Positions 39,165 to 57,485 are shown, counted from the first letter of the whole stretch. The stretch: 63,177 nt of DNA, filler included, from Candidatus Nezhaarchaeota archaeon WYZ-LMO8 (GCA_004347965.1; 4 parts of 4 records of this genome joined end to end with filler, not necessarily neighbours in it), one strand, 5' to 3'. Notes: generated from the letters alone by a model not told the origin. A program made the numbers and translations.

Positions 39165-39264
39165 NNNNNNNNNNNNNNNNNNNNNNNNNNNNNNNNNNNN
39201 NNNNNNNNTTAATTAATTAANNNNNNNNNNNNNNNNNNNNNNNNNNNNNNNNNNNNNNNNNNNN
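39165..39264. other. Artificial contig linker
   Basis: Same 44N-TTAATTAATTAA-44N pattern. Confidence 0.97.
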
Positions 39265-39867
39265 TCTAGGTACAGTTACTCCTCTGACAACGTTAGTAAT
39301 GACGTCATAAACTTCTCCTAATGTCTCCTCTCTTTCAGGAGGTGGACGTACTATGCGTGTTCTCACGCCTATCTTTGCGAAATCCTCGAAGTCCACAGGT
39401 GCTTGACATATGATTATGGTTGGCAACGCAATGAACCTTAGAAAGAACCTAGCTTTGTAGACTACATGCTCTCTAATGCTACCTAGATGAAGTATAGCTA
39501 GTTTATGCCTGTTTATGCTTAGAGCCTCTTCTTCATCTATTGAGCACAGGTTACCTCCAGGAGCTGCTGCTGAAGGTGCATCCGGAGCATTACCTCCTCC
39601 CTTGCTAAGAACCATTACGCTCACTTCAATACCTGCAGCCCTAAGAGCATACGTTATCTCGCAAACTGGCTTGGTAACATGTCTCCTACCAGGGGACATG
39701 GCTACTACAACAACGTCAGCCCTCATTGCTTGAGCCATCGTACCACTTTGTGCAAGCCCTCCACCAGTCTTGAGAGCCATAGTTCTCCTACAATCAACAA
39801 TGTGAGTCTTCCTGCCGAGCTTAAGATTCGAAATCTCGTAGATTCTCATTATGTCTCGAACACCCAT
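39265..39867 (-). CDS. mcrC: Methyl-coenzyme M reductase protein C (3' end cut off)
   Basis: GR.THIVDCR, GGGLAQ.GT, AMSPGRRH.TKPVCEIT, Q.PVDFEDFAKIGV. Confidence 0.93.
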
Positions 39868-39948
39868 TAGGGTTAGGGTTTAAAGACTTAAACTTAAATA
39901 TGTGATTCATGCGAATTACCTGGATAAAAATCCTATTGGGTTTAGAAG

Positions 39949-41487
39949 ATGGAAGAGAAAGTGAGAATATCAATAGATGGAAGGTCTCTGGAAGTGGAAA
40001 AAGGAACTACAATAAAGGAGCTACTCGAAAAATTGGGAATTAAATACGAGGGGCAAGCTCTTGTTGGCCTAAAGATGGTTAAGGAACAATTAATGCTAGA
40101 AACCACGAGCTTCGTCTTCGAAACCACGAAGGGCTCCTTTGTCGTTGAAGTCTATAAAGAAAACATCGAAACTTGGAGGAACATGCTGAAGAACATGGGT
40201 AGTCTCAGAGTCAAGTGGTCTACTCCAAGAGACGTGAGGTTAGGTGTCTTTACCATAAACTTGAAGCCTGAGCTCAAGACTAAGGAGTGGAGAGCTTGGG
40301 ATGTACTTATAAGCGCAGAAGGACTTGATATTGAGAATACTCATATAGTGATTTTGAAGGCAAGGCAAGAGTTAACGTACGCTGCCCCTCAAGGTGTTGA
40401 TAGTCTTGGTAGAGTTTCTCGAGGAAAGAACGTTGTAACGAATCTACAAATAGGAGACTCGATAATCTCTGTGAAGCCGATGATAACACCAGAGCAACTC
40501 TCTAAAGCTGTAGTTAGACTGAGCATTGATAATGTAATAGCAGAGCCTATGAACATATTCACTAAAGTTAAAATAAGGCTTCTTGATTCTTCACCAATGG
40601 CTGCCGAGCTCTTCATGTCCCTCGTTGAGATGTACGGTTTCACGGTCTCTAAAGCTCTCTCAACTTTCATAAAAAATGACCTCTTCAAAGGTCTGCAAGT
40701 TCCTCTTGAAAACAAGTCTCGTAGAGTACGTGGAAGTGTTACCATTAGAGTCAGTGGTCATGAAATGGGATCGATCTACGTGTATAAGAGGAGTTGCCCA
40801 TCATCGCCTCATCATAGTGTGATAGGCTACGTGGAGTCGGGAATTGAGATAATTGATGTGGCACGACCTATGGACAAAATACTTATCGAAACAGAACCTC
40901 AAAGGCTCAATCTCCTAGGTCTTACTCAAGCTGAAGCCTCAAAGATATTGAGCAACTGCGGCATAGCTCATGAAAGAGAGTGGTCTTCGAGAGACGATGA
41001 TGTGATAGTGGATCAAGAACCAAGCCTTACATTTCAAGTTTTAAAGGAAGGGAGGGTTAAAACGCGTGGTATTCCTGCGTCTAAGGTGCTAATGATCAGG
41101 CTTTACTACGACCAAGCACCCAGGACTGTGTGGTACTTCAAGGCATTAACAGGGCTACTTCATAGTAGAGTTGGCAAGTTAAAGGTTTACTTTGCTAATC
41201 CAATGATAGACTTCATTCTCTTCGAAGGTAGCAAAGATTTGAGTGGAGTGCTTTTACCGGAGAACAATCCTAAAGATAAGGTTAAGCCTCTCACAATAGG
41301 AGTAACAAACATGTCCAAGAAGCTTGTGGGTATGGTCGGGGTGAGACTTACGGAAAGCACATCTTATGGCCCGACGGGAGAGGATTTTGCTGGAACGAAC
41401 ATTATCGGCGAGGTAGTTAGGGATCTCAAAGTACTTAAGGAAGCTCGTGAGGGATCCATAGTATACGTCATGGAGATGCGATCATGA
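39949..41487 (+). CDS. mmp3: Methanogenesis marker protein 3 (cyclophilin-like)
   Basis: N-terminal ubiquitin-like domain, R.RGSVT.R..G...G.IY.Y, PEN.P, IGVTNMS, GVRL.ES..YGPTGE.F.GTNI.G. Confidence 0.9.
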   Translation: MEEKVRISIDGRSLEVEKGTTIKELLEKLGIKYEGQALVGLKMVKEQLMLETTSFVFETTKGSFVVEVYKENIETWRNMLKNMGSLRVKWSTPRDVRLGVFTINLKPELKTKEWRAWDVLISAEGLDIENTHIVILKARQELTYAAPQGVDSLGRVSRGKNVVTNLQIGDSIISVKPMITPEQLSKAVVRLSIDNVIAEPMNIFTKVKIRLLDSSPMAAELFMSLVEMYGFTVSKALSTFIKNDLFKGLQVPLENKSRRVRGSVTIRVSGHEMGSIYVYKRSCPSSPHHSVIGYVESGIEIIDVARPMDKILIETEPQRLNLLGLTQAEASKILSNCGIAHEREWSSRDDDVIVDQEPSLTFQVLKEGRVKTRGIPASKVLMIRLYYDQAPRTVWYFKALTGLLHSRVGKLKVYFANPMIDFILFEGSKDLSGVLLPENNPKDKVKPLTIGVTNMSKKLVGMVGVRLTESTSYGPTGEDFAGTNIIGEVVRDLKVLKEAREGSIVYVMEMRS

Positions 41488-41915
41488 AGAGGACGTTCGT
41501 GATTGTGATAAATCCAAGCTCAGAGTTAAGCCCTGAAAAGCTCTTTGATGAAGTGCTTAGTGTGAGTGCTGACATCTCCGCAAAGTGTACATGCTTTGGA
41601 GTATTAATCGAAGGCGAGGAGGAGGAAGTTACAAAAATCTTGAAGTACGTGAGGGAGAAGTATCCCTACGACACATTCATAAAACTTAGAGGTTACTCGA
41701 TTAATGACAGGAGAGTATGCCGTGCTCATAGAGGTGGGGGGCCTAGGCCAGGCTTCCATCAATTAGACGCAGAGTATAGGCTTCTACCACTCATAGCTGA
41801 GGCGTTGAAGGACTTAAGACTCGAAGAGGATAAGGTATCCCCACCTGAGAGCAAACCAATCAAAGCCGAGGAGATGAAGAAGATTGTAGAGGAGGTACTA
41901 ACAAGTGGAGCTTAA
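41484..41915 (+). CDS. mmp6: Methanogenesis marker protein 6
   Basis: K.TCFG..IEGE, RG....D.R.CRA.RGGGPRPGFHQL. Confidence 0.92.
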   Translation: MKRTFVIVINPSSELSPEKLFDEVLSVSADISAKCTCFGVLIEGEEEEVTKILKYVREKYPYDTFIKLRGYSINDRRVCRAHRGGGPRPGFHQLDAEYRLLPLIAEALKDLRLEEDKVSPPESKPIKAEEMKKIVEEVLTSGA

Positions 41916-42456
41916 AGTGGAAATCATCGGTGAAGGCAAGAGACAGTTCGAATCATTAATTAGAGATATCATCATGGATCTAGGAGTCTCCGGTTCAATA
42001 GAATCGTTGAAGATGTACCTCGATCCTCACGAATCAATCTTTGCTTTATACGTGAGAGCTAAACCATCATCACGTACGATAAGGTTAGTTGATGTTGCAG
42101 AAGTTTCGAAGCATGGGGATAAGGTTAGTGTGAAGATACTCGATGAGAGGTTTTCGCCAATTATTCTCAATCTTTTAGAGAAGATGTACAAAGATAAAGT
42201 TTCTCAGAGCAGTCGACATGAAATTGTAATCGAAAATGAGGGACGTAAAGAGGTATTAGAGGACCTTGAAATATGCGATTACGCCGACATGGTTAGGAGC
42301 TCAATCATAGAGCTTGTGAGGAGGATCATGCCTGAAGGTTTTAGGTCAGTAAAAATAATATCAAGGAATAAATACGAGCTGCTAGCTATAGCTTCTGAAG
42401 ATCCTTTAACTGAAGACCTGGTATCTAAAGTCAGCAGCTTAATGAACAGCAGTTAA
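41905..42456 (+). CDS. mmp17: Methanogenesis marker protein 17
   Basis: I...D, RI.PEGFR, ASED; follows mmp6. Confidence 0.85.
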   Translation: MELKVEIIGEGKRQFESLIRDIIMDLGVSGSIESLKMYLDPHESIFALYVRAKPSSRTIRLVDVAEVSKHGDKVSVKILDERFSPIILNLLEKMYKDKVSQSSRHEIVIENEGRKEVLEDLEICDYADMVRSSIIELVRRIMPEGFRSVKIISRNKYELLAIASEDPLTEDLVSKVSSLMNSS

Positions 42457-42462
42457 TGGTTG

Positions 42463-42996
42463 CTACTTCTTCGTGTCTTTAGTTACTTCTTTAATCCACG
42501 TCTTCACTACATCCTGGTACTCCTCTTCCCACATGCTATATAGCTTCTCGCAAGCTTTCTTATAAGCAGCAGCAAAGCAATAAGCTAAGATAGATGAAAT
42601 GGTGTACCTCCCCTCATTATCGTTAAAAGCTTTTTCAATCTCGTCGATCCCATCACTTACAATCTTCATAAAGTCTTCAATCATCCTGTGCGAAGTCTCC
42701 TCTACAATTTTGTTAAGTCCACCGACGGCGCCCTCATAGTATAGTGGGATTAGTGGTTTTACGAAGATCTTCTTTACCCCCCTTTTCTCTACGATCTCTG
42801 TCTTCACAATACCCAAACCTTCCATCTCATTTATCACATCTTTAATTAAGATCTCGCTTACACCAGTTAATGCAGCTAAGGTGTCTAGAGCTAGCGGACC
42901 ACGCGATAATATTTCAAGGATCCTACGCTTAGCTGAGTTGCTTAGCGCAGAACATATGATCGCACACTTCATTGAGTTCTCGAAGATTAACATCAA
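42463..42996 (-). CDS. Winged-helix (ArsR-like) transcriptional regulator with helical C-terminal domain
   Basis: ALSN..KRRILEIL..GP.....LA...GVS........L..M...GIV. Confidence 0.75.
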   Translation of the reverse strand: MMLIFENSMKCAIICSALSNSAKRRILEILSRGPLALDTLAALTGVSEILIKDVINEMEGLGIVKTEIVEKRGVKKIFVKPLIPLYYEGAVGGLNKIVEETSHRMIEDFMKIVSDGIDEIEKAFNDNEGRYTISSILAYCFAAAYKKACEKLYSMWEEEYQDVVKTWIKEVTKDTKK

Positions 42997-43156
42997 GATT
43001 CAGATCCCTCGTGTGTATGGTCATCTTGAGGATTTAAGCTTATACTTGGCATACAAACGTTGTACAGGGTACTTTACACATCAACTTATTTTGATCTATG
43101 CTTTAATGTCACGTTTACGGAGGACACAACTCTACTAAGACTCTTAAACGTAGGGT

Positions 43157-43172
43157 AAAAAAACTTAAAAGT
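43157..43172 (+). promoter_or_regulatory. BRE/TATA promoter of mcrBGA
   Basis: A-rich BRE + CTTAAAA ~35 nt upstream of the mcrB ATG; same AAA.CTTAAAA pattern precedes other genes in the window. Confidence 0.55.
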
Positions 43173-43205
43173 TCACCCAAGAAGTAGGTGTGCGAGGTCT
43201 AGGGT

Positions 43206-44540
43206 ATGCCTAGGTTCCCTGATAAAATAGATTTATACGATGATCGCGGAAAACTCATTGACACCAAAGTGCCTCTCGATGCGGTTAGCCCTCTTATTAA
43301 CCCAGCAATAAAGAAGATAATCTCGATAATCAAGAGAGCTGTAGCTGTTGACTTAAGAGGACTTGAGAGGTCTCTAGCCACTGGGGCTGTAGGAGGTAGA
43401 GGATGCATAATTAGAGGTCGAGAGCTGAAACTTGACATAGTACGTAATGCACCTGCAATAGCAGACAAGATAGAGAAGCTGGTAAGAGTTAAGCCTGGTG
43501 ACGATACAGAGGTCAAGATTCTCCGCGGTGGCGAAAACCTGTTGGTAATGGTTCCCTCATTAAGGCTTGAAGCAGGTGTTGAATATACAACTGCCTTCAC
43601 GGTGGTGGCTGCTGCCTTGTGTCATGTCCTCATCGAGACCTTCAACATCTCCATGTGGGATTACGACATGGTTCATGCAGCGGTTTGGGGTCGATATCCG
43701 CAAAGTGTTGACCCCATGGGTGCATGTGTCTCTCAACTCTTAGCTGTACCCCAGCAGAATGAAGGTATGGGGTACGCTCTAAGAAATATCCCTGCTGCAC
43801 ACATAGCAATGATAACTAAGAGGAACGCTATGAACGCCGCAGCTCTAGCTGCAATTCTTGAGCAGACAGCCATGTACGAGATGGGAGACGCCATAGGACC
43901 ATTTGAGAGGTACCAGCTGCTAGGTCTAGCCTATCAAGGATTAAATGCTAATAACATGGTCTACGACCTAGTAAAGGAAAATGGTAAGAGCGGGACCCTC
44001 GGTGATGTGGTTAGATCAACAGTTAAGAGGGCAGTAGCTGATAAAGTTATAAGACCACTTAAGAAGCTGCCCTCTGGCTACGTCCTGTACACAACAGATG
44101 ACTTATCTCTCTGGAATGCCTACGCAGCAGCAGGTCTCTTAGCTGGAACTATGGTCACATGTGGTGCTGCTAGAGCAATGCAGCACGTAACTTCAGTTTT
44201 AGTGTACTTCAACGACTTGATAGAGAGGGAGGCGGGACTACCAGGCGTCGACTTTGGAAGAGCTGAGGGTACCGGCATTGAAATGAGCTTCTTCAGCCAT
44301 TCAATTTACGGAGGAGGTAACCCTTGCGTATTCCACGGCAATCACATAGTCACGAGGCACAGCAAAGGCTTCGTAATACCTTGTGTAGCAGCTGCTGTAG
44401 CTCTAGATGCTGGTACGGTTTACTACTCTCCAGAGAGGTTGAGCGGAGTGGTAGGTGAGGTTTTAAGCGAAGTGCCTGAACTTCGTGAACCCTTAAAGTA
44501 TGTTGGTGATGCAGCTTCTAAAATTAAGGGGGAGGTGTAA
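43206..44540 (+). CDS. mcrB: Methyl-coenzyme M reductase beta subunit
   Basis: DKIDLYDD.G, WGRYPQ, YQGLNANN, WNAYAAAG, FFSHSIYGGG, GNHIVTRHSKG. Confidence 0.98.
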   Translation: MPRFPDKIDLYDDRGKLIDTKVPLDAVSPLINPAIKKIISIIKRAVAVDLRGLERSLATGAVGGRGCIIRGRELKLDIVRNAPAIADKIEKLVRVKPGDDTEVKILRGGENLLVMVPSLRLEAGVEYTTAFTVVAAALCHVLIETFNISMWDYDMVHAAVWGRYPQSVDPMGACVSQLLAVPQQNEGMGYALRNIPAAHIAMITKRNAMNAAALAAILEQTAMYEMGDAIGPFERYQLLGLAYQGLNANNMVYDLVKENGKSGTLGDVVRSTVKRAVADKVIRPLKKLPSGYVLYTTDDLSLWNAYAAAGLLAGTMVTCGAARAMQHVTSVLVYFNDLIEREAGLPGVDFGRAEGTGIEMSFFSHSIYGGGNPCVFHGNHIVTRHSKGFVIPCVAAAVALDAGTVYYSPERLSGVVGEVLSEVPELREPLKYVGDAASKIKGEV

Positions 44541-44543
44541 GAG

Positions 44544-45320
44544 ATGAGCGAATACAAACCTCAATTTTATCCTGGTTCAAGCCTAATAGCTCAAAACAGA
44601 AGAAAGTACCTAGATCTAAAATACCAGCTTAGAAGGCTTAGAAGCATAAGTGACGAGGACATAGTAAGACTTCTAGGCCACAGAGCTCCAGGAGAAGCCT
44701 ACAAGACTGTTCATCCTCCACTAGAGGAGATGGGCGAGCCTGATTGCCCGATAAGGAAGCTTGTCGAGCCAACACCTGGCGCAAAGGCTGGTGATAGAAT
44801 AAGATACGTACAGTTCACCGACTCGGTATACTTTGCACCGCTACACCCTGTCATACGATGCTGGGTCTATCACAATAGGTGGAGAGGTGTAGACCCAGGC
44901 TCATTATCGGGTAGGACCCCCCTTGAAGGTAGGGAGAGAGACATAGAACTCATATCTAAGGACCTCCTCGAAACCGAGTTATTTGATCCAGCAAGGTCAG
45001 CGGTTAGAGGTGCATCGGTTCATGGGCATGCACTAAGGCTTGATGAGAACGGACTGATGTTCGATATGCAGAGAAGGTACAAGTACGATCCTGAGAAAGG
45101 AGAAGTAGTTTACGTCAAAGATCAGACAGGCAAGCCACTTGATAAGCCAATTTATGTAGGCAAACCACTACCAGAGGAAGAGCTAAAGAAGATTACGACG
45201 ATATTTAGAGCGGATTACATCTCACTAAGAGACGATTCAGAGTTAATGGAGTTTGTACAAAGACTACACTGGTTGAGGACTATGGCTGGTGCAAATCCCG
45301 AATTAGTGAAGGGTGTTTAA
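44544..45320 (+). CDS. mcrG: Methyl-coenzyme M reductase gamma subunit
   Basis: PQFYPG, GHRAPGE, HPPL.EM.EP.CPIR, GDRIRY.QF.DS, VHGHALRLDENG. Confidence 0.98.
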   Translation: MSEYKPQFYPGSSLIAQNRRKYLDLKYQLRRLRSISDEDIVRLLGHRAPGEAYKTVHPPLEEMGEPDCPIRKLVEPTPGAKAGDRIRYVQFTDSVYFAPLHPVIRCWVYHNRWRGVDPGSLSGRTPLEGRERDIELISKDLLETELFDPARSAVRGASVHGHALRLDENGLMFDMQRRYKYDPEKGEVVYVKDQTGKPLDKPIYVGKPLPEEELKKITTIFRADYISLRDDSELMEFVQRLHWLRTMAGANPELVKGV

Positions 45321-45363
45321 ATTTGATTTATGAGTTAAAGTCATGAGTTTGGGGTGTATGGGT

Positions 45364-47031
45364 ATGGCGGCTCGAGAAAAGATGTTTATGGAGGCGCTAC
45401 GCAGAAAGTTCAAGGAAGCTCCTGAAGAGAAGTATACGAAATTCTACGTATACGGCCAATGGAAGCAGTCGAAGAGAAAGACAGAGTTCGTTGAATGGTC
45501 TCAGAAGATAGCTAAGGAAAGAGGCATACCAATGTACAACCCATCTCTGCACTTAGCTGGTGGTGTTGGGCAGAGAGTGTTAATGCCATATCAAGTCTCG
45601 GGAACTGACATATTTGTTGAGCCTGACGATCTTCATTTCGTTAACAATGCTGCCATGCAACAGATGTGGCATGACATAAGGAGGACGGTCATAGTTGGTC
45701 TTGATGCTGCACACACAATATTAACTAGAAGATTAGGCAAAGAAGTTACACCTGAAACTATAAACCACTACTTAGAAGTTCTAAACCACGCTTTACCAGG
45801 AGCAGCTGTAGTCCAAGAGCACATGGTTGAAACGCATCCAGCTATAGTCGCCGACAGCTACGTTAAAGTCTTCACCGGTGATGACGAGCTTGCAGATGAA
45901 ATAGACGATAAGTTCCTAATAGACATAAACAAGGAGTTCCCGCCAGAGCAAGCAGCTCAACTGAAAGCAGCTATAGGAAAGAGGATCTACCAAGTCCTAA
46001 GAATGCCGACGATAATAGCGATGACATGTGATGGAGGAACCATGTCTCGATGGGCTGCCATGCAGATCTCGATGTCCATGATCAACGCCTACAGGTTAAT
46101 GGCAGGTGAAGCAGCTGTCGGAGAATTCGCCTTTGCAGCAAAGCATGCTGAGCTAATAGAGATGGGCACGTTAATGCCATGGAGAAGGATTAGAAGCCCC
46201 AACGAGCCTGGAGGAATACCACTAGGATACCTAGCAGATATGTGCCAGGCAGAGAGAATCAAGCCTGAGGACCCAGCCTGGTGCGCTCTAGAGACCATAG
46301 CTATGGCGGCGGTCCTCTATGATCAGTTCTGGTTTGGAAGCTACATGAGCGGTGGAGTAGGCTTCACTCAATATGCAACAGCAACCTACACCGACAACAT
46401 ACTCGACGATTACTGCTACTATGGTATGGACCTAGTGCTCAAGAAGTATGGAGGCTTCGCTAAAGTTAAGCCGAGCTGGGATGTAATAAGGGAGCTCGCA
46501 ACGGAGCTCACCATGTACGGCTTAGAATGTTACGAGAAGTTCCCAGCATTAATGGAAACACACTTTGGAGGTAGTCAGAGAGCTGCTGTAGTAGCTGCAG
46601 GAGCTGGTGTAACTGTTTCTATAGCTACTGGCGTAGCTCAAGCTGGGCTTAACGCTTGGTACTTAAGCCAGCTACTACATAGAGAATCCGCTGGAAGACT
46701 CGGATTCTATGGGTACGACTGCCAGGATCAATGTGGCTCTGCTAACAGCTTCTCTTGGAGAAGCGATGAAGGCCTACCGTTTGAACTTAGAGGTGTGAAC
46801 TACCCGAATTACGCAATGAATGTCGGTCACCAATCAGCCTACGCCGGTATAATAAAGGCAGCCCACGTAGCTAGAGGAGATGCTTGGTGTGTTAGCCCAC
46901 TCATTAAGGTGGCCTTCGCCGATAAGCATCTAAAGTTCGACTTCACTAGACCGAGACTCTGCTTTGCAAAGGGAGCTCTTAGAGAGTTCATGCCAGCAGG
47001 TCTCTTAGACCCGATAATACCACCACACTAA
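45364..47031 (+). CDS. mcrA: Methyl-coenzyme M reductase alpha subunit
   Basis: [64 protein letters not shown] 45364 after GGGGTG RBS. Confidence 0.99.
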
Positions 47032-47045
47032 ATTTCCTCTTTTTT
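47032..47045 (+). terminator. T-rich archaeal terminator after mcrA
   Basis: ATTTCCTCTTTTTT directly after the stop, at the junction with the convergent gene. Confidence 0.45.
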
Positions 47046-48738
47046 ACACTTTCAATACGTTCTTCTTGTAGAACCTTAATGAAGCCTTTATTGGACCCTT
47101 ATACAGGATCGCACCATTATCTATGACTATCCCTTTATGGCAAGACTCCTCGACAAATCTTAGTTGATGATCAACAAGCAGAACAGAAACGTTTAAACTT
47201 GATACGACGTTCTTAACGGCGTTCGCTGCGCTCCTCGATGTTATTGGATCTAAGTCGCCGAAGGGCTCATCAAGTAGTAGAATGCTTGGCTTAGATACTA
47301 ATGCTAATGCCAGAGCGACTCTAACCTGTTCTCCTCCTGATAGCTCATAACTTCTTCGATATAGAACATCCTCTGGCAGTCTAAGTGCTTTAAGTAAATC
47401 TTTAACCTGGCTTTTAACGAACTCTGCAGGTAATACTGGAAAGAGCTCTTTAATTATGTCCATGGTGAAGCCAAGTTCTTCAAGCTTTGCTCTAGTCTCT
47501 TCTTCTGGTAGCTCAGCTATCCTGTGGAGAGCATCAAGCACCTTGACATCTATTCCAAGCTCCTTGGCTCTCTCTATGGCTCTCTGGATAACATCCCAGC
47601 TCTTCAATCCAAGCCTTGCAGCAAACAAATCAATTACCTTAGCCCAATAAGGTAGAGCAAACTCTTGATGCAGAATCCCTATCTCCTGCCTAACTCTCAT
47701 GCTCTCCTCGCCTAACTTCGTTATGTCTGTCCATCTACGACCACTTTTTACTAGAATTTCGCCACTGTCCGGTAATTCAAGCCCAGCCATTAGTCTCAAT
47801 ATTACGGTCTTCCCAGAACCTGACGGTCCTAGTAGGGCTGTAACTTCTCCCCTCCTCGATTCAAGATTAGCCTCTTTTAAAGTAAAGACCTCTCCAAGCG
47901 GTACTATCTTGTACTTCTTAGTCACATTCCTAGCCCTCAAAACTGGCATCACATGTTTAGGCTTAAGAGGTCTCGGAAGCGGTCTCTCAAGTTTTGATAG
48001 GAACTTTGTAAGCACATAATTAGGCTTGCCTTCTTTCACGACAACACCTTTGTCGAGCCATACAACTCTATCACAAAGCTTTCTATGCATTTCGGGCATG
48101 TGTGAGGCCATGATTATCGTAATACCGAGGTCGTTAATCCTCCTTAAAGCCCTCACAACTTCCTGCCTAGTTCTTGGGCAAGTCATTGTTACAGGTTCAT
48201 CTAATAGAAGTACTTCAGGTTTCTTAGCTATCTGTCTTGCAAGGATAAGTCTCTGCTTCTCACCACCACTAAGTGCTATAGCCCAAAGACTAGCTCTTTC
48301 CCTTAATCCTACCAACTCGAGAATTTGAAGCGCTTCTTCAGCTAATTTCTCGTATTCCCCAGAGCCTGGGGGAGGTAAGGTTTCAATTCCGGTGTACGTC
48401 CATCGCAAGGCTCTAATGACGTTCTCTAACACGGTTTCGGACCAAAGCCCAAAAGACCTCTGAAGATGTATGGCAGTTTTACGCATGAGCTTGCTATATT
48501 CATCAGGAGGTGAGTCAGGCGTCACCTTCACGTCGCCAACTCTAACAAACCCATGATCGAATCTCTCTGCGCCTCTTAGAATCCTTATTAGCGTGGTTTT
48601 TCCCGATCCACTTTCACCCAAGAGTCCTAGGAACTCTCCCTTTTCTACGGTAACATTTACGCCATTCAGAGCCTTTATATCAATTCCATAGCTTGTCCTG
48701 TAAATCTTTGTCAAATCCCTGATCTCCACGAAGATCAT
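47044..48738 (-). CDS. Component A2 paralog (dual ABC ATPase, no Zn-binding insert)
   Basis: Two NBDs (GESGSGKT, GPSGSGKT), A2-type HLQRSFGL and G.LHQEFAL motifs, no TM domains. Confidence 0.88.
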   Translation of the reverse strand: MIFVEIRDLTKIYRTSYGIDIKALNGVNVTVEKGEFLGLLGESGSGKTTLIRILRGAERFDHGFVRVGDVKVTPDSPPDEYSKLMRKTAIHLQRSFGLWSETVLENVIRALRWTYTGIETLPPPGSGEYEKLAEEALQILELVGLRERASLWAIALSGGEKQRLILARQIAKKPEVLLLDEPVTMTCPRTRQEVVRALRRINDLGITIIMASHMPEMHRKLCDRVVWLDKGVVVKEGKPNYVLTKFLSKLERPLPRPLKPKHVMPVLRARNVTKKYKIVPLGEVFTLKEANLESRRGEVTALLGPSGSGKTVILRLMAGLELPDSGEILVKSGRRWTDITKLGEESMRVRQEIGILHQEFALPYWAKVIDLFAARLGLKSWDVIQRAIERAKELGIDVKVLDALHRIAELPEEETRAKLEELGFTMDIIKELFPVLPAEFVKSQVKDLLKALRLPEDVLYRRSYELSGGEQVRVALALALVSKPSILLLDEPFGDLDPITSRSAANAVKNVVSSLNVSVLLVDHQLRFVEESCHKGIVIDNGAILYKGPIKASLRFYKKNVLKV

Positions 48739-48835
48739 AGAATAGCCCTAGAGTAGGGTCTCTCTTACCGATTAAAACTTTAATTATGCACTAACAACTA
48801 TACGTCAGTGGAGAAGTAGGCAAGGAGGATTGTAG

Positions 48836-49177
48836 TTGCTAGAAAAGCAGATAGAGATTTTTCCATACAGAGTGTTAAGCGAGAGAACGACTAAGAAACT
48901 TTTAAGAAGGATATCGAAGATTAAAGGAGTTCTGGATGCAATACCTCACGTCCTAAGATACGAGGATGGAGAGACTGTCACGAAGAGGATAATTATCGCC
49001 TTAAACGGTACATCTCCCGTAGAAGAGGTCTTTAAGAAGATAGACAATATATGTAAGGAGCTATTACCATTCGGCTACATGATTAGAAGCGGAGTCTTCA
49101 TAAAGCCAAGGCCTACCGTCTCAGATTACCTTAGAAGAACTCAAGCTTCAAGTGAGGAGCTGGAAGAGAAGTATTAA
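48836..49177 (+). CDS. mcrD: Methyl-coenzyme M reductase protein D
   Basis: IEIFP.R.L...TT.KLL, C.ELLPFGY....G.F....PTVSDY. Confidence 0.9.
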   Translation: MLEKQIEIFPYRVLSERTTKKLLRRISKIKGVLDAIPHVLRYEDGETVTKRIIIALNGTSPVEEVFKKIDNICKELLPFGYMIRSGVFIKPRPTVSDYLRRTQASSEELEEKY

Positions 49178-49434
49178 CGCTGTGTTGATTTATCCTCTAG
49201 TTCTCGAATCCTCTCCTCTAACTTCTTAATCATGAACTCTCGAGCCCTCATGAGGTCCTCTATCTTACCTCTAAGCACTAAAGTTTTAGGTCTTCCGTAG
49301 ACGTCATCCAGTGGTGGAATATTGACTTCTAACTCAACTACTCTTAAATTGAAGGTTTGCGCGGTCTCAGCTATTATCGAGTAAGGAACACCAGCAGGTA
49401 TTTTCATGTAAGCTTCTCTCTCCTCTCCTCTCAT
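49174..49434 (-). CDS. Small conserved hypothetical protein
   Basis: 86 aa, IP.GVP..II......F.L ... LRG..E.L..A pattern; convergent on mcrD. Confidence 0.7.
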   Translation of the reverse strand: MRGEEREAYMKIPAGVPYSIIAETAQTFNLRVVELEVNIPPLDDVYGRPKTLVLRGKIEDLMRAREFMIKKLEERIRELEDKSTQR

Positions 49435-49945
49435 AATAAGTTCTCCTTCCCTAATCTAAATGAACCATTTTACACTTTAACTTTCTGTTCAAGCCTTAAG
49501 GTTTCAAATGTCCTCACACTTGTAACACATGGATGCTTACAATGTTAAGCAGCCTGTTTAGAGATGATGTTAGAGCTAGTCTCAATGCTACACGTACTCT
49601 CATGATTTCATGGTAATAGCAAGTACTTTAGAAGGAGTACCTCAGCGTTGATTTAATGAAGATTAACTTTAAGACCAACATAACATCGTTATCGCAAATT
49701 AATATGCACGCTACAGACTTGTACTGAACACTTCATGTGCTAGAATTTAATGGGTGAAGGGTGTCTAAAATCTACGCGTAAGAAGCCCATCACACTAAGT
49801 GAGACAGCGACTCGAGTTCCGAAGATAACATTTGTGAACGTAAGTCCTGTAGATGCTGTAGTTCTTAGTAGAGCTGAGGAGATCATAATTAACGCTGAAA
49901 GACCTTTTTATATCCTTAAACACTGAAAAAGTCCAAGTGAGATAG

Positions 49946-50245
49946 ATGTCGAACTACGCGGTTAATAGGAGGGGTGTAAAGATAGCAATAGGATTACGAG
50001 TGAGATACATTGGTACAGGAACCATTGGAGTTGTAAAGGCAATAAACCTATCCGATGAGAGGTATTGGGCCCTTTTAGATTCTACAAACCTATATTATGA
50101 CATTGACTACTTAGAGCCATTGTCAGAAGCAAGCGAGAAGGAGGGGGCAAGCTTGAAAGCTAAGGTGGAGGAGATGGACTCTGTTAAAAAAGAGGATAAG
50201 GTTATTGAGAGAGCTACTGAGGTAACTCCTTCGGGTGCTGGCTAA
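49946..50245 (+). CDS. DUF2098 family protein (SH3-like)
   Basis: G..I.IG..VRY.GTGT.G.V, WA.LD.T.LYY, C-terminal GAG. Confidence 0.85.
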   Translation: MSNYAVNRRGVKIAIGLRVRYIGTGTIGVVKAINLSDERYWALLDSTNLYYDIDYLEPLSEASEKEGASLKAKVEEMDSVKKEDKVIERATEVTPSGAG

Positions 50246-50267
50246 GATACTGCTGAAGTGATATGGG

Positions 50268-50858
50268 TTGAATGGTACTAAAAGCTTTAGACGTATAGTC
50301 TCCATAGTAAGCGAGATAAAGAGGTTAACAGCAGAGCTACCTAGTACTGAAGCTTTAGAGAAAGTGAGGAGAGCGTATAGCGGCTTTCCTAAAGTTGCAG
50401 AACTAGTAGCTGAAGCTTTCATTCATGATAGGCTCGTAGGGATCTACGATAGACTACTTCTTGAGTTATTAATAGTTGAAAGGTACGATCCCCCGGTTAG
50501 ACCTGCCTTAGATCCGGAATTCGCTTTAGCCTTAAGGTTGTACTCGTTCGACGACATTGAGGTTGGTAGATTCCTCGGGTATCCTAGTTGCTGCATAGAA
50601 AGCTTTGTTAGTGATTATAGACTCTTCTTTGACGAGGAGCATTTAAAAGAGCTCCATGAAATAAAGAAAGCGGGGTTGAAGGTCGTCTTGACAGCAGGCT
50701 TCATACCATGCAGCCTATACTGCGAGAAAGCCATGGTATCTGGCCTTCTAGAACATTTAGATAATCCGTCACAAATAATGCTACTGAATGATGAACTTAA
50801 AAAGATGCTTCCTCACTCTCATTCAGCTTACCAAAGCTTCTATGAATTCTTAAGTTAA
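50268..50858 (+). CDS. DUF483 family protein
   Basis: P.VRPALDP, G.FLGYP.CCI.SF, GFIPCS..C. Confidence 0.8.
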   Translation: MNGTKSFRRIVSIVSEIKRLTAELPSTEALEKVRRAYSGFPKVAELVAEAFIHDRLVGIYDRLLLELLIVERYDPPVRPALDPEFALALRLYSFDDIEVGRFLGYPSCCIESFVSDYRLFFDEEHLKELHEIKKAGLKVVLTAGFIPCSLYCEKAMVSGLLEHLDNPSQIMLLNDELKKMLPHSHSAYQSFYEFLS

Positions 50859-50877
50859 GGTGAGTACCAGGTGATGA

Positions 50878-51333
50878 ATGTTGCCTAAGAAGGTCATGAT
50901 ATTTCCACCAAATAGCTTAATACTTTACGACTTGGTTCTAAGGTTTGGCCACAAACCTCTAGCAATAATGTCAAAGATAGGTGAGAAAGTAAGAAATCCT
51001 GAGATCGATTCTCCACCAATAAATATAACGTATGAAGAGCCTAGGCATGGAGTAAAGTACTGTGCCGTTGAAGTCCCCTCAGGTGTTAGAGGTAGGATGG
51101 CTCTACTAGGACCGTTAATTGAAGAAGCTGAAGCTGCAATAATAGTTGACGACCCTGACATATCCTTTGGATGTTCTGGCTGTGCTAGGACAAACGAACT
51201 TGTAATACAGATGCTCTATGAAAAGAACATCCCAATACTAAGGTTGAGGTATCCTAGAAACAATGATGAGGCGCGAGAATTCGTTCGTTCAATAGTAAAA
51301 TTCTTGAAGTCCCTTAATGGTGATAAAGGATGA
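50878..51333 (+). CDS. mmp5: Methanogenesis marker protein 5
   Basis: PPNSLIL.DLV.RFGH.PL, DSPP.NIT, EVPSGVRGRM, FGC.GCARTNE. Confidence 0.93.
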   Translation: MLPKKVMIFPPNSLILYDLVLRFGHKPLAIMSKIGEKVRNPEIDSPPINITYEEPRHGVKYCAVEVPSGVRGRMALLGPLIEEAEAAIIVDDPDISFGCSGCARTNELVIQMLYEKNIPILRLRYPRNNDEAREFVRSIVKFLKSLNGDKG

Positions 51334-52562
51334 CTGTAAGGATAGCACAAATATCGTGTGGGACCGAGTATAGTGGTATTCAAGGAGAAGTCTACAGAGC
51401 TGCTGAAATCACTGGGATGCATATTGTGTTCCCTGAAATTGATACTGACGACATTAAGAGAGCAATGGATGTCATAGGTCTATATCCTGCAAGCACTGGA
51501 TTGAGGGTTATGCTTGCAAGAGCATTGGCGGTAGCCGAAGGTAGGGTTGAAGTTGATGGAGTGATAGTCATGACGTGCTTTAGGTGCGCGGAAGGTGCTT
51601 TAGTTCGACATACAATAAGACGCTTTCTCCACAAAACAACTAAAATTCCAGTGATATCGTACTCGTTTACTGAGAGAACCAAGGCTGAAAACCTCTTATT
51701 GAGATTTGAAGCTCTTGTAAACATGATTGAGCGGCGTACTCTTCTTGCTAGAAAGAAGCATGAGGGGCTAACTATTGGAATAGACTCTGGATCAACAATG
51801 ACAAAGGGAGTGGTCATGAAGAATGGGGAGATCTTAGCTGCTTACTGGTTGCCGACAATAGATGTAGTTACTTCAGGGCTAAGAGTCTACGAAGAGCTAT
51901 TTAAAAAAACTGGCATGTCAAAGAGCCAGGTAGAAGCCATAGGAGTAACAGGCTATGGTCGCTTCATATTAGGTAAAGAGCTCAAAGCAAACTTAGTCCA
52001 GGAAGAAATAACTGTCTGTTCAAAAGGGGCTGCGTACCTGGGTAACGCTCAAGAGAGCTACTCAACGATAATAGATATAGGTGGTGCGGACAATAAGGCA
52101 ATAGCTTTGTATGAAGGTGTTCCATACAGCTTTACTGTTGGAGGAATATGTGCTGGAGCCTCGGGTCGTTTTCTGGAGATAACTGCTACGAGACTTGGTG
52201 TAGATTTGATGACGTTTGGAGAGCTTGCATTGAAGGGGGATCATCGTAAGATAGTTATGAATGCCTACTGCATAGTCTTTGGAATGCATGATTTAGTGAC
52301 AGCTCTCGCGAGGGGGGCGAGACGGGAGGATGTCGCTGCAGCTGCTTGCTACAGTGTTGCAGAGCAATTCTTCGAGCAACAATTCCAAGAGGTCGAGGTT
52401 AAAGAACCAGTGCTACAGATAGGGGGGACATCACTTATTAAAGGGCTTGTGAAAGCCTTCGAAGATACGCTTAAAATGAAGATCATAGTACCCCCATACT
52501 CTCAATTTGCTGGTGCAGTGGGAGCAGCAATACTGTCATCAGCACTTGCTAAGAGCAGCTAA
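51330..52562 (+). CDS. mmp15: Methanogenesis marker protein 15 (BadF/acyl-CoA dehydratase activase-like ATPase)
   Basis: IAQ.SCG.EYSG.Q, TCFRCAE, GIDSGST.TK, TGYGR, GG.CAGASGRF, YCIVFG. Confidence 0.93.
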   Translation: MTVRIAQISCGTEYSGIQGEVYRAAEITGMHIVFPEIDTDDIKRAMDVIGLYPASTGLRVMLARALAVAEGRVEVDGVIVMTCFRCAEGALVRHTIRRFLHKTTKIPVISYSFTERTKAENLLLRFEALVNMIERRTLLARKKHEGLTIGIDSGSTMTKGVVMKNGEILAAYWLPTIDVVTSGLRVYEELFKKTGMSKSQVEAIGVTGYGRFILGKELKANLVQEEITVCSKGAAYLGNAQESYSTIIDIGGADNKAIALYEGVPYSFTVGGICAGASGRFLEITATRLGVDLMTFGELALKGDHRKIVMNAYCIVFGMHDLVTALARGARREDVAAAACYSVAEQFFEQQFQEVEVKEPVLQIGGTSLIKGLVKAFEDTLKMKIIVPPYSQFAGAVGAAILSSALAKSS

Positions 52563-53455
52563 CTTAATGCCGACTCCGGCAGCAACTTGACCAGTATGTG
52601 ATCGTTTAAGACCGACCTCTTAATGGAGGCTATCTCCTTCACTCTATATTCTTCAATAATTACATTACTCACAGGCTTGGAGTATTCGTCATAGTTGAGC
52701 AGTACTCTAACTCCATCAACCTTGAGGACCGTGGAGCCCTTAGCTTCCTCAATTTGTCTCTCTACTTCCTGCTTTAAAAGTACTGGAGGTACAAGAGGAG
52801 GGTCCTCAAGAAGCTCCCCCCTCTTCTTCTCGAGCAGCTTACTAAGAGCATTCACTATCTTCTCAAGAATCTTCTCCTCTTCGCTCGACTTCAAACGATG
52901 CGCTACTCTTCCAAGCCCTCCTACGTACACTATCCATTCTGGGAGCTCGACATGTTGAGGACCGCCAACTATCACTATCGGTATGTGAAGTCCCCTAAGC
53001 ATCACAGCCTTCTTCTTTATGCACTCATCAACGTTACCCATTATGAAAACTGCAGCATCAACCTCGTTTAGGAAATCTCTTTCATAGCTTGTAATCATAG
53101 CCCTTTTCTGCCCAACTCCTCTTGAAAGTCCAACCATAAACGTCTTTGCTCCATGTCTCCTTAAGTACTCGTTAATATCGCATGCTGGATGGGGTAAGTG
53201 TCTAAAGGACATACTTGGGGGGACAACCGCTACTTCTGAACCTACAAGCTTGGCTTCACGAACCTTAGCTTTAACCTCTTCAACCAACTTCATGAAGCTC
53301 TCGAGATCAGTTCTCGGGATGGCGATAAACATTACCAAGTCGAGCCCCATTGAGAACTCTTCTATTACTACGCCACCTAGATCCTCTATGAAGTCGATGA
53401 CCTCATTCTTTCTGTAGAGACCCCCCTCGAATATATAGTATCCATAATCGTACAT
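52559..53455 (-). CDS. mmp7: Methanogenesis marker protein 7
   Basis: F.GG.Y.......IEDLGG, HLPHPACDI.EYLRR.GA, GL.RG.G, DPP; ATG 53455 after GGGTG. Confidence 0.92.
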   Translation of the reverse strand: MYDYGYYIFEGGLYRKNEVIDFIEDLGGVVIEEFSMGLDLVMFIAIPRTDLESFMKLVEEVKAKVREAKLVGSEVAVVPPSMSFRHLPHPACDINEYLRRHGAKTFMVGLSRGVGQKRAMITSYERDFLNEVDAAVFIMGNVDECIKKKAVMLRGLHIPIVIVGGPQHVELPEWIVYVGGLGRVAHRLKSSEEEKILEKIVNALSKLLEKKRGELLEDPPLVPPVLLKQEVERQIEEAKGSTVLKVDGVRVLLNYDEYSKPVSNVIIEEYRVKEIASIKRSVLNDHILVKLLPESALS

Positions 53456-53590
53456 TCGATGCACCCAATACTTCTGGTCTTCACTTAAAGGGCTACTTGA
53501 GAAAGGCTATATTAGTTTTGCATGATTACTTATAACCCTAATTCACCAAGTATTTGTGACCTCGCCATAGAATATCCAGACGTGGTAACA

Positions 53591-55177
53591 ATGATACTAC
53601 TCGAAGTCCGGAGGGTAAGCAAAGAGTTCGATGGGGTAAAGGCACTTGATGGTGTATCATTTAATTTAAAGCTTGGAGAGAGTCTTGGAATTTTTGGTAA
53701 AAGCGGGGCGGGTAAATCGGTCTTAATGCACATGATTCGAGGGGTCAGAGGTTATGAGCCAACGGATGGTAAGGTCATATATCATGTAGCTATTTGTCCG
53801 CAATGTTTATGGATTGAGACACCCGACTTCGGTGGTAAGCCTTGTCCTTACTGCAACACCGTGATGGAGTACAGAGTCATCGACTTCTGGAGTGAGTCTG
53901 ATAGGAAGGTTGTTGAAGCTCTAAGGGCTCGAGTTGCTATAATGTTTCAAAGGACATTCGCACTTTACGGCAGCTTGACGCCGCTAGAGAACATCATGGA
54001 GGCTCTAAGGAGAGCTAGAGTTAAAGAGGACAAGGCCCTTAAGCTTGCCATAGACTACTTAAATCACGTTAACCTACTGCATAGGATGCTACACCCAGCT
54101 GAGATTCTAAGTGGAGGAGAAAAGCAGAGAGTCGTACTTGCAAGGCAAATAGCCGTGAACCCCATCTTACTGCTAGCTGATGAACCCACTGGTACGCTAG
54201 ATCCATACAACGCTGAGCTTGTAAGTAGGGTTTTGCTGAGAGAGTTTAAAGAGAAAAAGAAGTGCATGATAGTAGCCTCCCACATCCCGATAGTTCTACG
54301 TAGTCTCTGCGATAGAATAATATGGCTCAGCGAGGGGAAAGTTGTGATGGAGGGGAGTGCCGACGAGGTCTTCAATACTTTTCTTAAAGATCTTGGAGAG
54401 GTAACACTAGAAAAAGCTCCAATAGGAGGCGATGTGCTAAGGATAATAAACATAAGTAAGTACTACTACTCGCTCGATAGAGGACTTGTAAAGGCTGTAG
54501 ATAACGTTAACTTAACTGTTAAGGAACGAGAAATTCTGGGAATCGTTGGTAGGAGTGGAGCTGGAAAAACAACTTTATCACGAATCATATGTGGCATCAC
54601 AGAGCCTTCTAGTGGCAAGGTGGAAATAAGGATTGGGGATCGCTGGTACGACATCACAAAGCAAGGTTACGAAAGAGCTATAGCACTAAGCTACGTAGGT
54701 CTACTACATCAAGAGTACTCCCTCTACCCATATAGAACGGTTATAGAGAACTTAAGCTCAGCTATAGGGTTAGAGCTACCAGAGGAGCTAGCTAGGCTTA
54801 AAGCAGTTTACACGTTAAGGTCTGTAGGCCTGGAACCTAAAACTATAGATAAAATACTTAACAAGTATCCTGACGAGCTTAGTGAAGGTGAAAGGCATAG
54901 AGTTGCATTAGCACAAGTTCTGATTAAGGAACCTAGGATAGTGGTTCTTGATGAGCCCTCGGGAACCATGGATCCCATAACTAAAGTTGAAGTGGCAAAA
55001 TCCATATCGACGTCGAGATCACAGCTCGACGAGACATTTATAATAGTTTCACACGATGTTGACTTCGTCAAATTGACTTGTGACAGAATCGTATTAATGG
55101 AGAGCGGTAAGGTAGTAGATTACCTAGATCCCAAGAGAATATCATGGGAGGCACTTGCTGCCAGACTCAGCGAGTAA
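53591..55177 (+). CDS. atwA: Methyl-coenzyme M reductase system component A2
   Basis: GKSGAGKS.LMH..RG, CPQC...CPYC Zn insert, AIMFQRTFALY, LHQEYSLYP, ELSEGERHR; start moved to ATG 53591. Confidence 0.93.
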   Translation: MILLEVRRVSKEFDGVKALDGVSFNLKLGESLGIFGKSGAGKSVLMHMIRGVRGYEPTDGKVIYHVAICPQCLWIETPDFGGKPCPYCNTVMEYRVIDFWSESDRKVVEALRARVAIMFQRTFALYGSLTPLENIMEALRRARVKEDKALKLAIDYLNHVNLLHRMLHPAEILSGGEKQRVVLARQIAVNPILLLADEPTGTLDPYNAELVSRVLLREFKEKKKCMIVASHIPIVLRSLCDRIIWLSEGKVVMEGSADEVFNTFLKDLGEVTLEKAPIGGDVLRIINISKYYYSLDRGLVKAVDNVNLTVKEREILGIVGRSGAGKTTLSRIICGITEPSSGKVEIRIGDRWYDITKQGYERAIALSYVGLLHQEYSLYPYRTVIENLSSAIGLELPEELARLKAVYTLRSVGLEPKTIDKILNKYPDELSEGERHRVALAQVLIKEPRIVVLDEPSGTMDPITKVEVAKSISTSRSQLDETFIIVSHDVDFVKLTCDRIVLMESGKVVDYLDPKRISWEALAARLSE

Positions 55178-57300: not shown

Positions 57301-57385
57301 GCGGGGGTGGCCGAGTCAGGTCAAAGGCGGCAGGTTCAGGACCTGCTGGCGTAGGCCTTCGTGGGTTCGAATCCCACCCCCCGCA
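57301..57385 (+). tRNA. tRNA-Leu(CAG)
   Basis: GCGGGGG/CCCCCGC acceptor stem, GCAGG-TTCAGGA-CCTGC anticodon arm, long variable arm, GTTCGAATC T loop, discriminator A. Confidence 0.96.
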
Positions 57386-57485
57386 NNNNNNNNNNNNNNN
57401 NNNNNNNNNNNNNNNNNNNNNNNNNNNNNTTAATTAATTAANNNNNNNNNNNNNNNNNNNNNNNNNNNNNNNNNNNNNNNNNNNN
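57386..57485. other. Artificial contig linker
   Basis: Same 44N-TTAATTAATTAA-44N pattern. Confidence 0.97.

Follow-up and report, generated by a model that had tools for sequence, protein, structure and literature searches.

A compact supercluster of methyl-coenzyme M reductase and activation genes in a Nezhaarchaeota genome, and its empty site in relatives

The genes of methyl-coenzyme M reductase (MCR) and of its activation machinery lie together in ~16 kb, at positions 39265–55177, of a 63,177-base stretch of DNA (the window) from Candidatus Nezhaarchaeota archaeon WYZ-LMO8 (genome G000), where they make up about 1.2% of the 1.35-Mb genome. This block is very likely a co-inherited and probably co-regulated MCR supercluster, which is ancestral in its family and was lost from congeners by a single deletion of ~18 kb. 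The genes, their homology, their conserved order, their co-occurrence with MCR, and an empty site in MCR-lacking relatives were observed directly, and the evidence on all genes of the block is computational (sequence, synteny, and models).

The window is comprised of four contigs (C16, C17, C18, and C49) of a 78-contig metagenome-assembled genome (MAG) that is 93% complete, joined by N44-TTAATTAATTAA-N44 spacers, and the adjacency of these parts says nothing on genomic linkage. The finding is confined to C18, with the block starting at its first base; housekeeping genes, among them those for RNA polymerase, ribosomal proteins, EF-1alpha, and RadA, occupy the other three. Genes were called from a listing of open reading frames (ORFs) together with Pfam and NCBIfam hidden Markov model (HMM) scans, using the NCBIfam equivalog cut-offs as thresholds, and the accessory proteins were compared with PDB chains by phmmer. 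An initial annotation of the sequence had named mcrC, mmp3, mmp6, mmp17, mcrBGA, mcrD, DUF2098, mmp5, mmp15, mmp7, and two A2 ATPases in this region. The HMM searches recovered every one of these markers on the one contig, most of them above the equivalog cut-offs, with the correction that the second "A2" is a paralogue (ABC2). Mmp7, McrD, and this second ATPase score below their NCBIfam cut-offs; Mmp7 does so slightly (TIGR03274, 330.7 versus 349.15 bits), and McrD, with 113 aa against a profile of 150 positions, reaches 66.2 of 100 bits with TIGR03260 and passes the Pfam cut-off. A short McrD is common to the class, with relatives of 108–117 aa, and has 120 aa in G183, a genome of family f9. 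Each marker that was searched for in G000 was found in a single place, or in the two ABC genes. The cluster also holds a DUF483 gene, which the initial annotation left unnamed.

From the start of C18, the genes are arranged as mcrC (−), mmp3-mmp6-mmp17 (+), HTH177 (−), mcrBGA (+), ABC2 (−), mcrD (+), orf86 (−), DUF2098-DUF483-mmp5-mmp15 (+), mmp7 (−), A2 (+), and orf137 (−), forming nine transcription units on alternating strands with five divergent promoter regions of 81, 209, 97, 511, and 57 bases (Table 1). The block is a neighbourhood and not a single operon.

Table 1. Genes, intergenic regions, and contigs of the window. Positions are counted from the first base of the window; scores are in bits and are followed, after "vs", by the cut-off.
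Feature	Position	Strand	Matches and remarks
mcrC	39265–39867	−	201 codons, truncated at the 3' end by the edge of C18; TIGR03264 255.8 vs 213.5, profile 1–181 of 194; PDB 8S7V chain I 225.1
mmp3	39949–41487	+	TIGR03268 482.6 vs 234.45; PDB 8S7V chain J 281.4
mmp6 (DUF2102)	41484–41915	+	TIGR03272 137.1 vs 125.95; PF09875 115.8; 4-base overlap with mmp3
mmp17 (DUF2113)	41905–42456	+	TIGR03291 117.2 vs 67.1; PDB 8S7V chain G 38.3, E 1.1e-8
HTH177	42463–42996	−	177-aa winged-helix protein; no curated family
HTH177/mcrB divergent promoter region	42997–43205		209 bases; invariant A-rich CTTAAAA box before mcrB
mcrB	43206–44540	+	TIGR03257 650.7, above cut-off; mcrBGA contiguous, 43206–47031
mcrG	44544–45320	+	TIGR03259 369.4, above cut-off
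mcrA	45343–47031	+	TIGR03256 976.7, above cut-off
ABC2 (A2 paralogue, AtwA2-like)	47044–48738	−	TIGR03269 290.9 vs 517.1
mcrD, short form	48836–49177	+	113 aa; PF02505 64.7 vs 25
orf86	49174–49434	−	86 aa, KH-like; convergent with mcrD, 4-base overlap
orf86/DUF2098 divergent spacer	49435–49945		511 bases; short repeats only
DUF2098 gene	49946–50245	+	PF09871 69.8 vs 25; PDB 8S7X/8S7V chain L 38.3, E 1.2e-8
DUF483 gene	50268–50858	+	196 aa; PF04467 101
mmp5	50878–51333	+	TIGR03271 222.4 vs 140.25
mmp15 (BadF/BcrAD-type ATPase)	51330–52562	+	TIGR03286 610.9 vs 455.75
mmp7	52559–53464	−	PF04609 (MCR_C) 294; PDB 8S7V chain H 245.6
atwA (component A2)	53522–55177	+	TIGR03269 719.9 vs 517.1
orf137	55186–55599	−	PNPOx-like split-barrel flavin protein; PF01243 71.1
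Small ORF, ~62 aa	55660–55848	−	apparently coiled-coil; between orf137 and orf436
orf436 (PaaK-like adenylating enzyme)	55856–57166	−	PF00501, PF14535; flank gene outside the block
tRNA gene	57301–57385	+	58 bits; very end of C18, upstream of orf436, away from the block junction
Contig C16	1–19713		
Spacer	19714–19813		
Contig C17	19814–39164		
Spacer	39165–39264		
Contig C18	39265–57385		
Spacer	57386–57485		
Contig C49	57486–63177		

The arrangement was compared across 31 genomes of the class (G000 included), of which 12 have Mmp3 and 11 have McrA; the single Mmp3-positive, McrA-negative genome (G007) has a completeness of 72%, and the cluster there runs off the end of the contig. All four other genomes of the family (f1) with Mmp3 keep the window order, giving four genera in total. 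G006, G009, and G008 share the full order of 19 genes and G007 the part of it that its contig of 8,093 bases covers; in G006, a congener assembled in 2 contigs, the proteins of these 19 genes show 73–98% amino-acid identity. The supercluster is typical of the MCR-bearing Nezhaarchaeales (Methanonezhaarchaeia) family. Proteins nearly identical to those of the window carry source names of Nezhaarchaeales or Nezhaarchaeota, in keeping with the Thermoproteota assumed in the initial annotation. A 342-aa ORF with no Pfam family (orf342; L015:1821-2849 in G006) is found one base after mcrC in G006, G009, and G007, and has no match in G008, nor in the G000 assembly with its ~3-kb gap at that place.

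Outside the family, the same gene families are linked in a different arrangement. In all seven genomes of the Methanomethylicaceae (f5, including Methanosuratincola) the genes form two sub-clusters, the first with the order orf86 / mmp5-mcrC-mcrD / mmp3-mmp6-mmp17-mmp7-ABC2 and the second with the order HTH(Cro-type)-mcrBGA-DUF483 / HAD hydrolase / DUF2098 / AIR-synthase-like / A2; mmp15 is placed between the two, and mcrA is located 21–25 kb from mmp3 in the four genomes that have both on one contig. Unlike in the window, the last gene of the Mmp3 operon is ABC2 and that of the mcr operon is DUF483, and a helix-turn-helix (HTH) gene of the Cro/C1 type precedes mcrB. McrA was found in 37 of 401 Thermoproteota genomes, and the two of these that fall outside f1 and f5 were examined. 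In G183 the genes are divided between two contigs, one with orf86 / HTH177-like / mcrD / mmp3-6-17-7-ABC2 and the other with mcrBGA-DUF483. G032, from another class, has everything within ~37 kb: mcrC / mcrBGA, then mmp3-6-17-7 / mmp15-mmp5, and then mcrD and orf86 as an operon that is transcribed divergently from ABC2-A2-YcaO-DUF483; a homologue of orf137 (61% identity) is encoded nearby. As a rule, MCR-bearing Thermoproteota keep these genes clustered, and the Nezhaarchaeales form is the most compact version among those compared; the synteny comparison proposed with the initial annotation thus shows an order that recurs in three further genera and a linkage that is kept across families.

Two further observations were made in these relatives. 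A RACo-type protein is encoded directly after ABC2 in G183 (L069:9378-11306), at the end of the mmp3-6-17-7-ABC2 operon; RACo proteins are reductive activators of corrinoid enzymes that combine a 2Fe-2S cluster with an ASKHA ATPase. Several Methanomethylicaceae (G030:C3, G227, G337, G292, G286, and G354) have a second, divergent McrA-like gene (~515–535 bits, cut-off 767.75), which may be of the alkyl-CoM reductase type.

Within the genus (g1), McrA or Mmp3 was found in only one of six other species (two of seven with G000), and the MCR-lacking congeners reveal what stands in place of the block. In G006, orf436 and an S-adenosylmethionine (SAM) decarboxylase gene are 18.2 kb apart and enclose orf137, A2 through mcrC, and orf342. 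In G004 (9 contigs, 93% complete) and G001, both MCR-lacking, the same two flank genes are only 343 and 247 bases apart, respectively. Beyond the junction the same pyridoxal phosphate (PLP) enzyme and then A-type ATPase genes follow in G004, the PLP gene of G001 being on another contig. In both genomes orf436 is kept right beside the empty site, and a blastn search of the junction found no remnant of block genes, only the conserved ~62-aa ORF that also follows orf436 in G006 and marks the left edge of the deletion.

The empty site points to loss of the ~18-kb block in one deletion. Ancestral presence and a single deletion are favoured because the flanks are kept outside the genus and features of mobile elements are missing: both flanks recur in G009, a member of another genus, G008 retains orf137/orf436 at one end and the PLP-ATPase genes at the other, with orf342 and the SAM-decarboxylase gene absent, no integrase or recombinase was found in or beside the block, and boundary repeats do not exceed 11 nt. 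The flanks in G009 and G008 favour a block that is ancestral in the family. Methanonezhaarchaeaceae species without mcr and with few marker genes have been reported (preprint 10.1101/2025.06.25.661132), the locus of the loss not being described in the available text of that preprint.

The reverse reading, in which the block is a recently acquired genomic island that was transferred horizontally as a cassette into the site between orf436 and the SAM-decarboxylase gene, would account for its patchy presence in the genus and for the clean junction between presence and absence, and it could draw on the tRNA gene that lies beyond orf436 and on the rampant horizontal transfer of A2 reported among archaea (bioRxiv 10.64898/2026.03.18.712670, available text). 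It is nevertheless quite improbable. The same block sits between the same flanks in G009 and, bar orf342 and the SAM-decarboxylase gene, in G008, with G007 matching within its contig, and neither the search for recombination genes nor the short boundary repeats speak for insertion. The composition of the block is typical of the genome, with a GC content of 0.440 versus 0.435 and with 68 of 84 other 16-kb windows more atypical in tetranucleotide use (distance from the genome mean), the tRNA gene is away from the junction, and a partial TfuA match survives in MCR-lacking G002. This last match (G002:C37:6592-6762; E 4e-13, profile 46–103, in a 105-aa frame) may be a relic of lost McrA-modification genes. 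On C16, a serine recombinase gene (Resolvase domain, 119.7 bits; 17541–18254) is found near the contig end beside a radical-SAM gene and is unrelated to the block.

The sharing of divergent promoter regions by neighbouring units suggests co-regulation, and the block is therefore probably co-regulated. The CTTAAAA box upstream of mcrB is invariant in an alignment of four genera, and the HTH177/mcrB region includes one 10-nt imperfect inverted repeat; a convincing operator repeat was found in none of the promoter regions. The spacer between orf86 and DUF2098 contains no conserved element and no Rfam match, and varies from ~0.2 to 1.9 kb among genera, and an Rfam scan of the spacers found no family besides the terminal tRNA. 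HTH177 has only weak matches to ArsR/TrmB/MsvR-type HTH families (Pfam and NCBIfam), is found at the same position in G006, G009, G008, and G007, always divergent from mcrB in f1, and has a relative (26% identical) that adjoins orf86 in G183; it is a likely regulator and a prime candidate for a dedicated one. An HTH gene directly precedes mcrB in both f1 and f5, the two being of different types: a divergent winged helix in f1 and, in f5, a Cro/C1-type protein with a PrpR_N-like part (L038:2316-2879) that is co-directional with mcrB. Contigs of one metatranscriptome (X14), which cannot show transcripts, strand, or level and whose uncovered bins mean nothing, lie on 27 of 30 bins, including one 622-nt piece over DUF483; they are 90–99% alike and therefore come from a related strain.

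Several points weigh against the picture of a co-regulated block removed in a single event. Co-regulation is drawn from gene layout alone, and the RNA contigs are uninformative on it. The direction of change, loss and not gain, comes from parsimony over genus labels, and a junction-spanning contig is available from only two of the five MCR-lacking congeners, the contigs of G003 and G005 ending there and G002 having been left out. CfbD, YcaO, and full-length TfuA were likewise not found in the MCR-lacking congeners, and losing methanogenesis therefore took more than one deletion. In G000 itself, ~3 kb between C18 and C2 is unassembled and mcrC is incomplete, the gap being expected to hold the rest of mcrC, orf342, the SAM-decarboxylase gene, and the PLP enzyme.

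The initial annotation regarded the unassigned genes of the cluster as strong candidates for MCR factors, a proposal that gains support from their co-occurrence with MCR in the 31 genomes and their linkage to MCR genes across families. The first of these, orf86, belongs to no Pfam or NCBIfam family and was matched at E ≤1.9e-13 in exactly the 11 McrA-bearing genomes of the 31, one further match (E 0.006, inside a 967-aa frame) being taken as chance. A scan of genome contigs with a narrow orf86 alignment gave matches in the same class only, and a profile search of 1.84 billion representatives gave 40 proteins at E ≤0.001. Its relatives, named "hypothetical", come from Bathyarchaeota, Verstraetearchaeota, Syntropharchaeia, Methanosarcinales, Halobacteriota, Methanopyri, and Methanobrevibacter. 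Comparison of the orf86 profile by hhalign with a weaker set of small proteins, including some of methanogens, gave a probability of 98.9%, the set having been drawn from the profile's own hits, and a match in the ESM Atlas to the "MJ0093 family" (PF27275; score 0.87) is an unconfirmed lead. Genomic linkage is tight, with mmp5 and mcrC within 2.5 kb of orf86 in 17 of 19 loci (the other two contigs end within 1 kb) and mcrD within ~3 kb in all four families examined. The AlphaFold model of orf86 (pLDDT 87.4) has a beta-alpha-beta-beta-alpha order with a long last helix. The best Foldseek matches were the KH domains of FUBP1, which are weak (E 0.013, TM about 0.45), and orf86 departs from the KH fold in having no GXXG in its alignment, with a conserved P-x-G-x-P instead, and one helix, not two, before strand 2. 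A profile search of the PDB gave nothing significant.

The DUF483 protein has full-length matches (E ≤1.3e-24) in the 12 cluster-bearing genomes, compared with only partial matches (~1e-9 to 1e-12), in frames of 296–340 aa, in seven MCR-lacking genomes. Its gene is found directly downstream of mcrA in all seven Methanomethylicaceae and in G183, and downstream of YcaO in G032. Three invariant histidines (His125, His183, and His185), three invariant cysteines (the adjacent Cys108 and Cys109, and Cys152), and two invariant aspartates suggest a possible metal site. The structural model is confident only in its helical N-terminal half, and neither Foldseek against the PDB at E ≤0.001 nor PDB sequence and profile searches found a match. 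A predicted complex of DUF2098 with DUF483, run without controls, scored 0.00 and is no evidence either way. The DUF2098 proteins of eight genomes consist of a conserved small domain in the N-terminal half, followed by a variable charged linker and an invariant C-terminal Gly-Ala-Gly.

Two roles for DUF483 were considered and rejected. The idea that it substitutes for TfuA in thioglycine formation came from the control genomes, DUF483 being found in Methanocaldococcus jannaschii only and TfuA in Methanosarcina acetivorans only. However, G000 and 10 of the 11 further cluster-bearing genomes encode both TfuA and YcaO alongside DUF483, no TfuA being found in G007, which is 72% complete. The second idea, that DUF483 is a partner of Mmp10, the radical-SAM enzyme that methylates an arginine of McrA, was prompted by a phage preprint whose available text describes DUF483 linked or fused to radical-SAM and methyltransferase domains. 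At a threshold of E 1e-20, Mmp10 was detected in none of the 31 genomes, the 11 McrA-bearing ones among them, with both methanogen controls positive, and therefore cannot be the partner here. A literature search found nothing that links DUF483 (PF04467) or MJ0093 (PF27275) to MCR. The orf137 gene was found in 10 of the 31 genomes, all of them with the cluster and none among the 19 that lack it, and the copy in G032 lies near DUF483. Borrel et al. reportedly listed 38 markers in 2019, and some of the candidates (orf86, DUF483, and ABC2) may already be on that list.

Of the "two A2 ATPases" named at the outset, one stands as the true component A2 and the other is a zinc-less paralogue. A2 matches chain K of PDB 8S7V/9H1L over its full length (555.2 bits) and carries the zinc motif CPQC..CPYC, whereas ABC2 has no cysteine in the aligned stretch, is 31% identical to A2, and falls well below the A2 cut-off (Table 1), which together rule it out as a true component A2. 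ABC2 has two intact ABC domains (PF00005 twice), with Walker A, signature, and Walker B motifs present in both its translation and the alignment, and an insertion of ~55 residues in the second domain. Its best PDB match is the A2 chain (209.1 bits), with no further chain found. Of the 31 genomes, precisely the 11 with McrA have an ABC2 match of 528.8 bits or more, and the matches in G032 and G183 reach 637–667 bits; homologues ~47% identical occur in Methanobacterium, Archaeoglobi, Bathyarchaeota, and Methanomethylicus, where they are named ABC ATP-binding proteins by NCBI and A2 by JGI. Paralogues of AtwA, AtwA1 and AtwA2, were described in Methanothermobacter (Kaster et al. 2011, PMC3087415), and an A2 homologue without the zinc-binding motif, MA_3967, served as an outgroup in a study of A2 (bioRxiv 10.64898/2026.03.18.712670); the available texts of both give no function for a zinc-less paralogue. 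ABC2 is like AtwA2 and MA_3967 in being a double-ABC ATPase related to A2, the lack of a zinc motif being shown for MA_3967 and ABC2 and the likeness being one of sequence, and it differs from them in its position between mcrA and mcrD.

The block was also put forward initially as an attractive cassette for heterologous expression, which would hold if it were self-sufficient and moving ~16 kb gave a host active MCR. In favour of this, it encodes the enzyme itself (mcrBGA), McrD, and all proteins of the activation complex whose structure has been solved. The claim is overstated, and self-sufficiency is very improbable, on several counts. The nine units run on both strands from native archaeal promoters. 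CfbD (methanogenesis marker 13), an enzyme of F430 synthesis, was not found in the G000 assembly, probably owing to an assembly gap in the 93%-complete MAG, and lies on other contigs in G006, G007, and G009. YcaO and TfuA are encoded on contig C1 of G000 and a NifB-like gene on C23. With F430 synthesis, YcaO/TfuA, and the NifB-like gene located elsewhere, the block is therefore not stand-alone. Published heterologous MCR work, as far as the available texts of PMC9584954 and PMC9081873 go, used a methanogen host, and it is as a parts list for expression in such a host that the block is useful.

There is no sign of chimerism in C18, a possibility that had been named as fatal to the whole finding: that the contig is a chimera or binning artefact joining genes of different organisms, as a 78-contig MAG and a window of concatenated contigs might suggest, is scarcely credible given the identical gene order in the 2-contig G006, the homogeneous composition, and the DNA contigs of three runs from two other studies (X9, X10, and X11), which cover 30 of 30 bins, differ by 0–4 letters in each of the pieces listed, and bridge the gene junctions piecewise.

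Functionally, the block would supply what MCR assembly, loading, and reduction to Ni(I) need: mcrBGA, the six accessory proteins McrC, Mmp3, Mmp7, Mmp17, A2, and DUF2098, then Mmp5, Mmp6, Mmp15, and the short McrD, together with five conserved extras, namely the zinc-less A2 paralogue, the KH-like orf86, DUF483, the winged-helix regulator, and the PNPOx-like protein. By analogy with Methanococcus maripaludis (PMC12176620, available text), McrC, Mmp7, Mmp17, and Mmp3 would carry the iron-sulfur clusters through which low-potential electrons reach F430, A2 would bind MCR and use ATP, and DUF2098 would be held by a loop of McrC. McrD is thought to deliver F430, and ANME-1 is noted as a lineage that lacks it (PMC9081873, available text). 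Genes outside the block would still have to provide F430 synthesis, the thioamidation of McrA, and the NifB-like protein.

In a possible, though rather unlikely, extension, McrD, orf86, and ABC2 would make up a second maturation module for MCR, driven by ATP and serving F430 insertion or apo-MCR assembly, in parallel with the nickel-reducing module of A2, McrC, Mmp3, Mmp7, Mmp17, and DUF2098, with DUF483 as a further accessory acting on McrA. It is proposed because orf86 is near mcrD in four families and the mcrD-orf86 operon of G032 is divergent from ABC2-A2-YcaO-DUF483, because orf86 and ABC2 occur in exactly the MCR-bearing genomes of the 31, and because profile comparison places relatives of orf86 in Methanopyri, Methanobrevibacter, Halobacteriota, and Syntropharchaeia; its grounds are linkage and co-occurrence.

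MCR assembly, F430 loading, and activation are only partly solved, the 2025 structure explaining six accessory proteins. Mmp5, Mmp6, Mmp15, McrD, and the A2 paralogues are all packed beside the enzyme in this lineage, and the block provides a short and testable list of candidates in orf86, the zinc-less A2 paralogue, DUF483, the PNPOx-like protein, and the dedicated regulator. The empty site, in turn, gives a concrete genomic picture of a lineage dropping the core of methanogenesis in one deletion, a loss that the available literature so far reports only as gene absence.

The M. maripaludis activation complex (PDB codes 8S7V, 8S7X, and 9H1L), in which McrC, Mmp7, Mmp17, Mmp3, A2, and DUF2098 co-purify (PMC12176620), is the closest biochemical reference. 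All six accessory chains have homologues encoded here, which bears out the initial description of the cluster as a parts list that is nearly complete for the structural and activation genes of MCR. The matches of Mmp17 and DUF2098 to their counterparts are distant, at E about 1e-8. Mmp6, by contrast, had been counted among the members of the complex, and this does not hold: neither it nor Mmp5 or Mmp15 is named in the available text of that paper (0 occurrences for each). The co-purified subunits that it reports include none of Mmp5, Mmp6, Mmp15, ABC2, orf86, and DUF483, and PDB searches with orf86, DUF483, and ABC2 found no chain beyond A2 itself.

In M. acetivorans, an "MCR activation operon" consists of A2 (MA_3998), Mmp5, Mmp6, Mmp17, Mmp7, Mmp3, and Mmp15, and the mcr operon is a separate unit (bioRxiv 10.64898/2026.03.18.712670, available text). 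All seven of these genes are also neighbours here, within 39949–55177. Unlike the co-directional run of M. acetivorans, they form four units on both strands, mixed with mcrBGA, mcrC, and mcrD and interleaved with DUF2098, DUF483, orf86, the A2 paralogue, and the regulator. As that operon was already known, the genes are not "usually scattered", as had first been stated, and the Methanomethylicaceae and two other families of Thermoproteota cluster them as well.

The canonical mcr operon of methanogens is mcrBDCGA (review PMC9081873, available text). As in that operon, mcrB, mcrG, and mcrA are contiguous and co-directional in the window, whereas mcrC is found 3.3 kb upstream, on the opposite strand, and mcrD 1.8 kb downstream, behind ABC2; relative to mcrBDCGA, mcrC and mcrD have moved out and activation genes have moved in around mcrBGA. 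A merged cluster of this kind is not described in the available texts of the Methanonezhaarchaeia preprint (10.1101/2025.06.25.661132), Adam et al. 2022, or PMC9081873. What is particular here is that the activation set is merged with mcrBGA, mcrC, mcrD, and DUF2098 in one block. Taken together, these comparisons describe a genuine and well-supported feature, characteristic of its lineage, that merges the mcr operon and the MCR activation operon.

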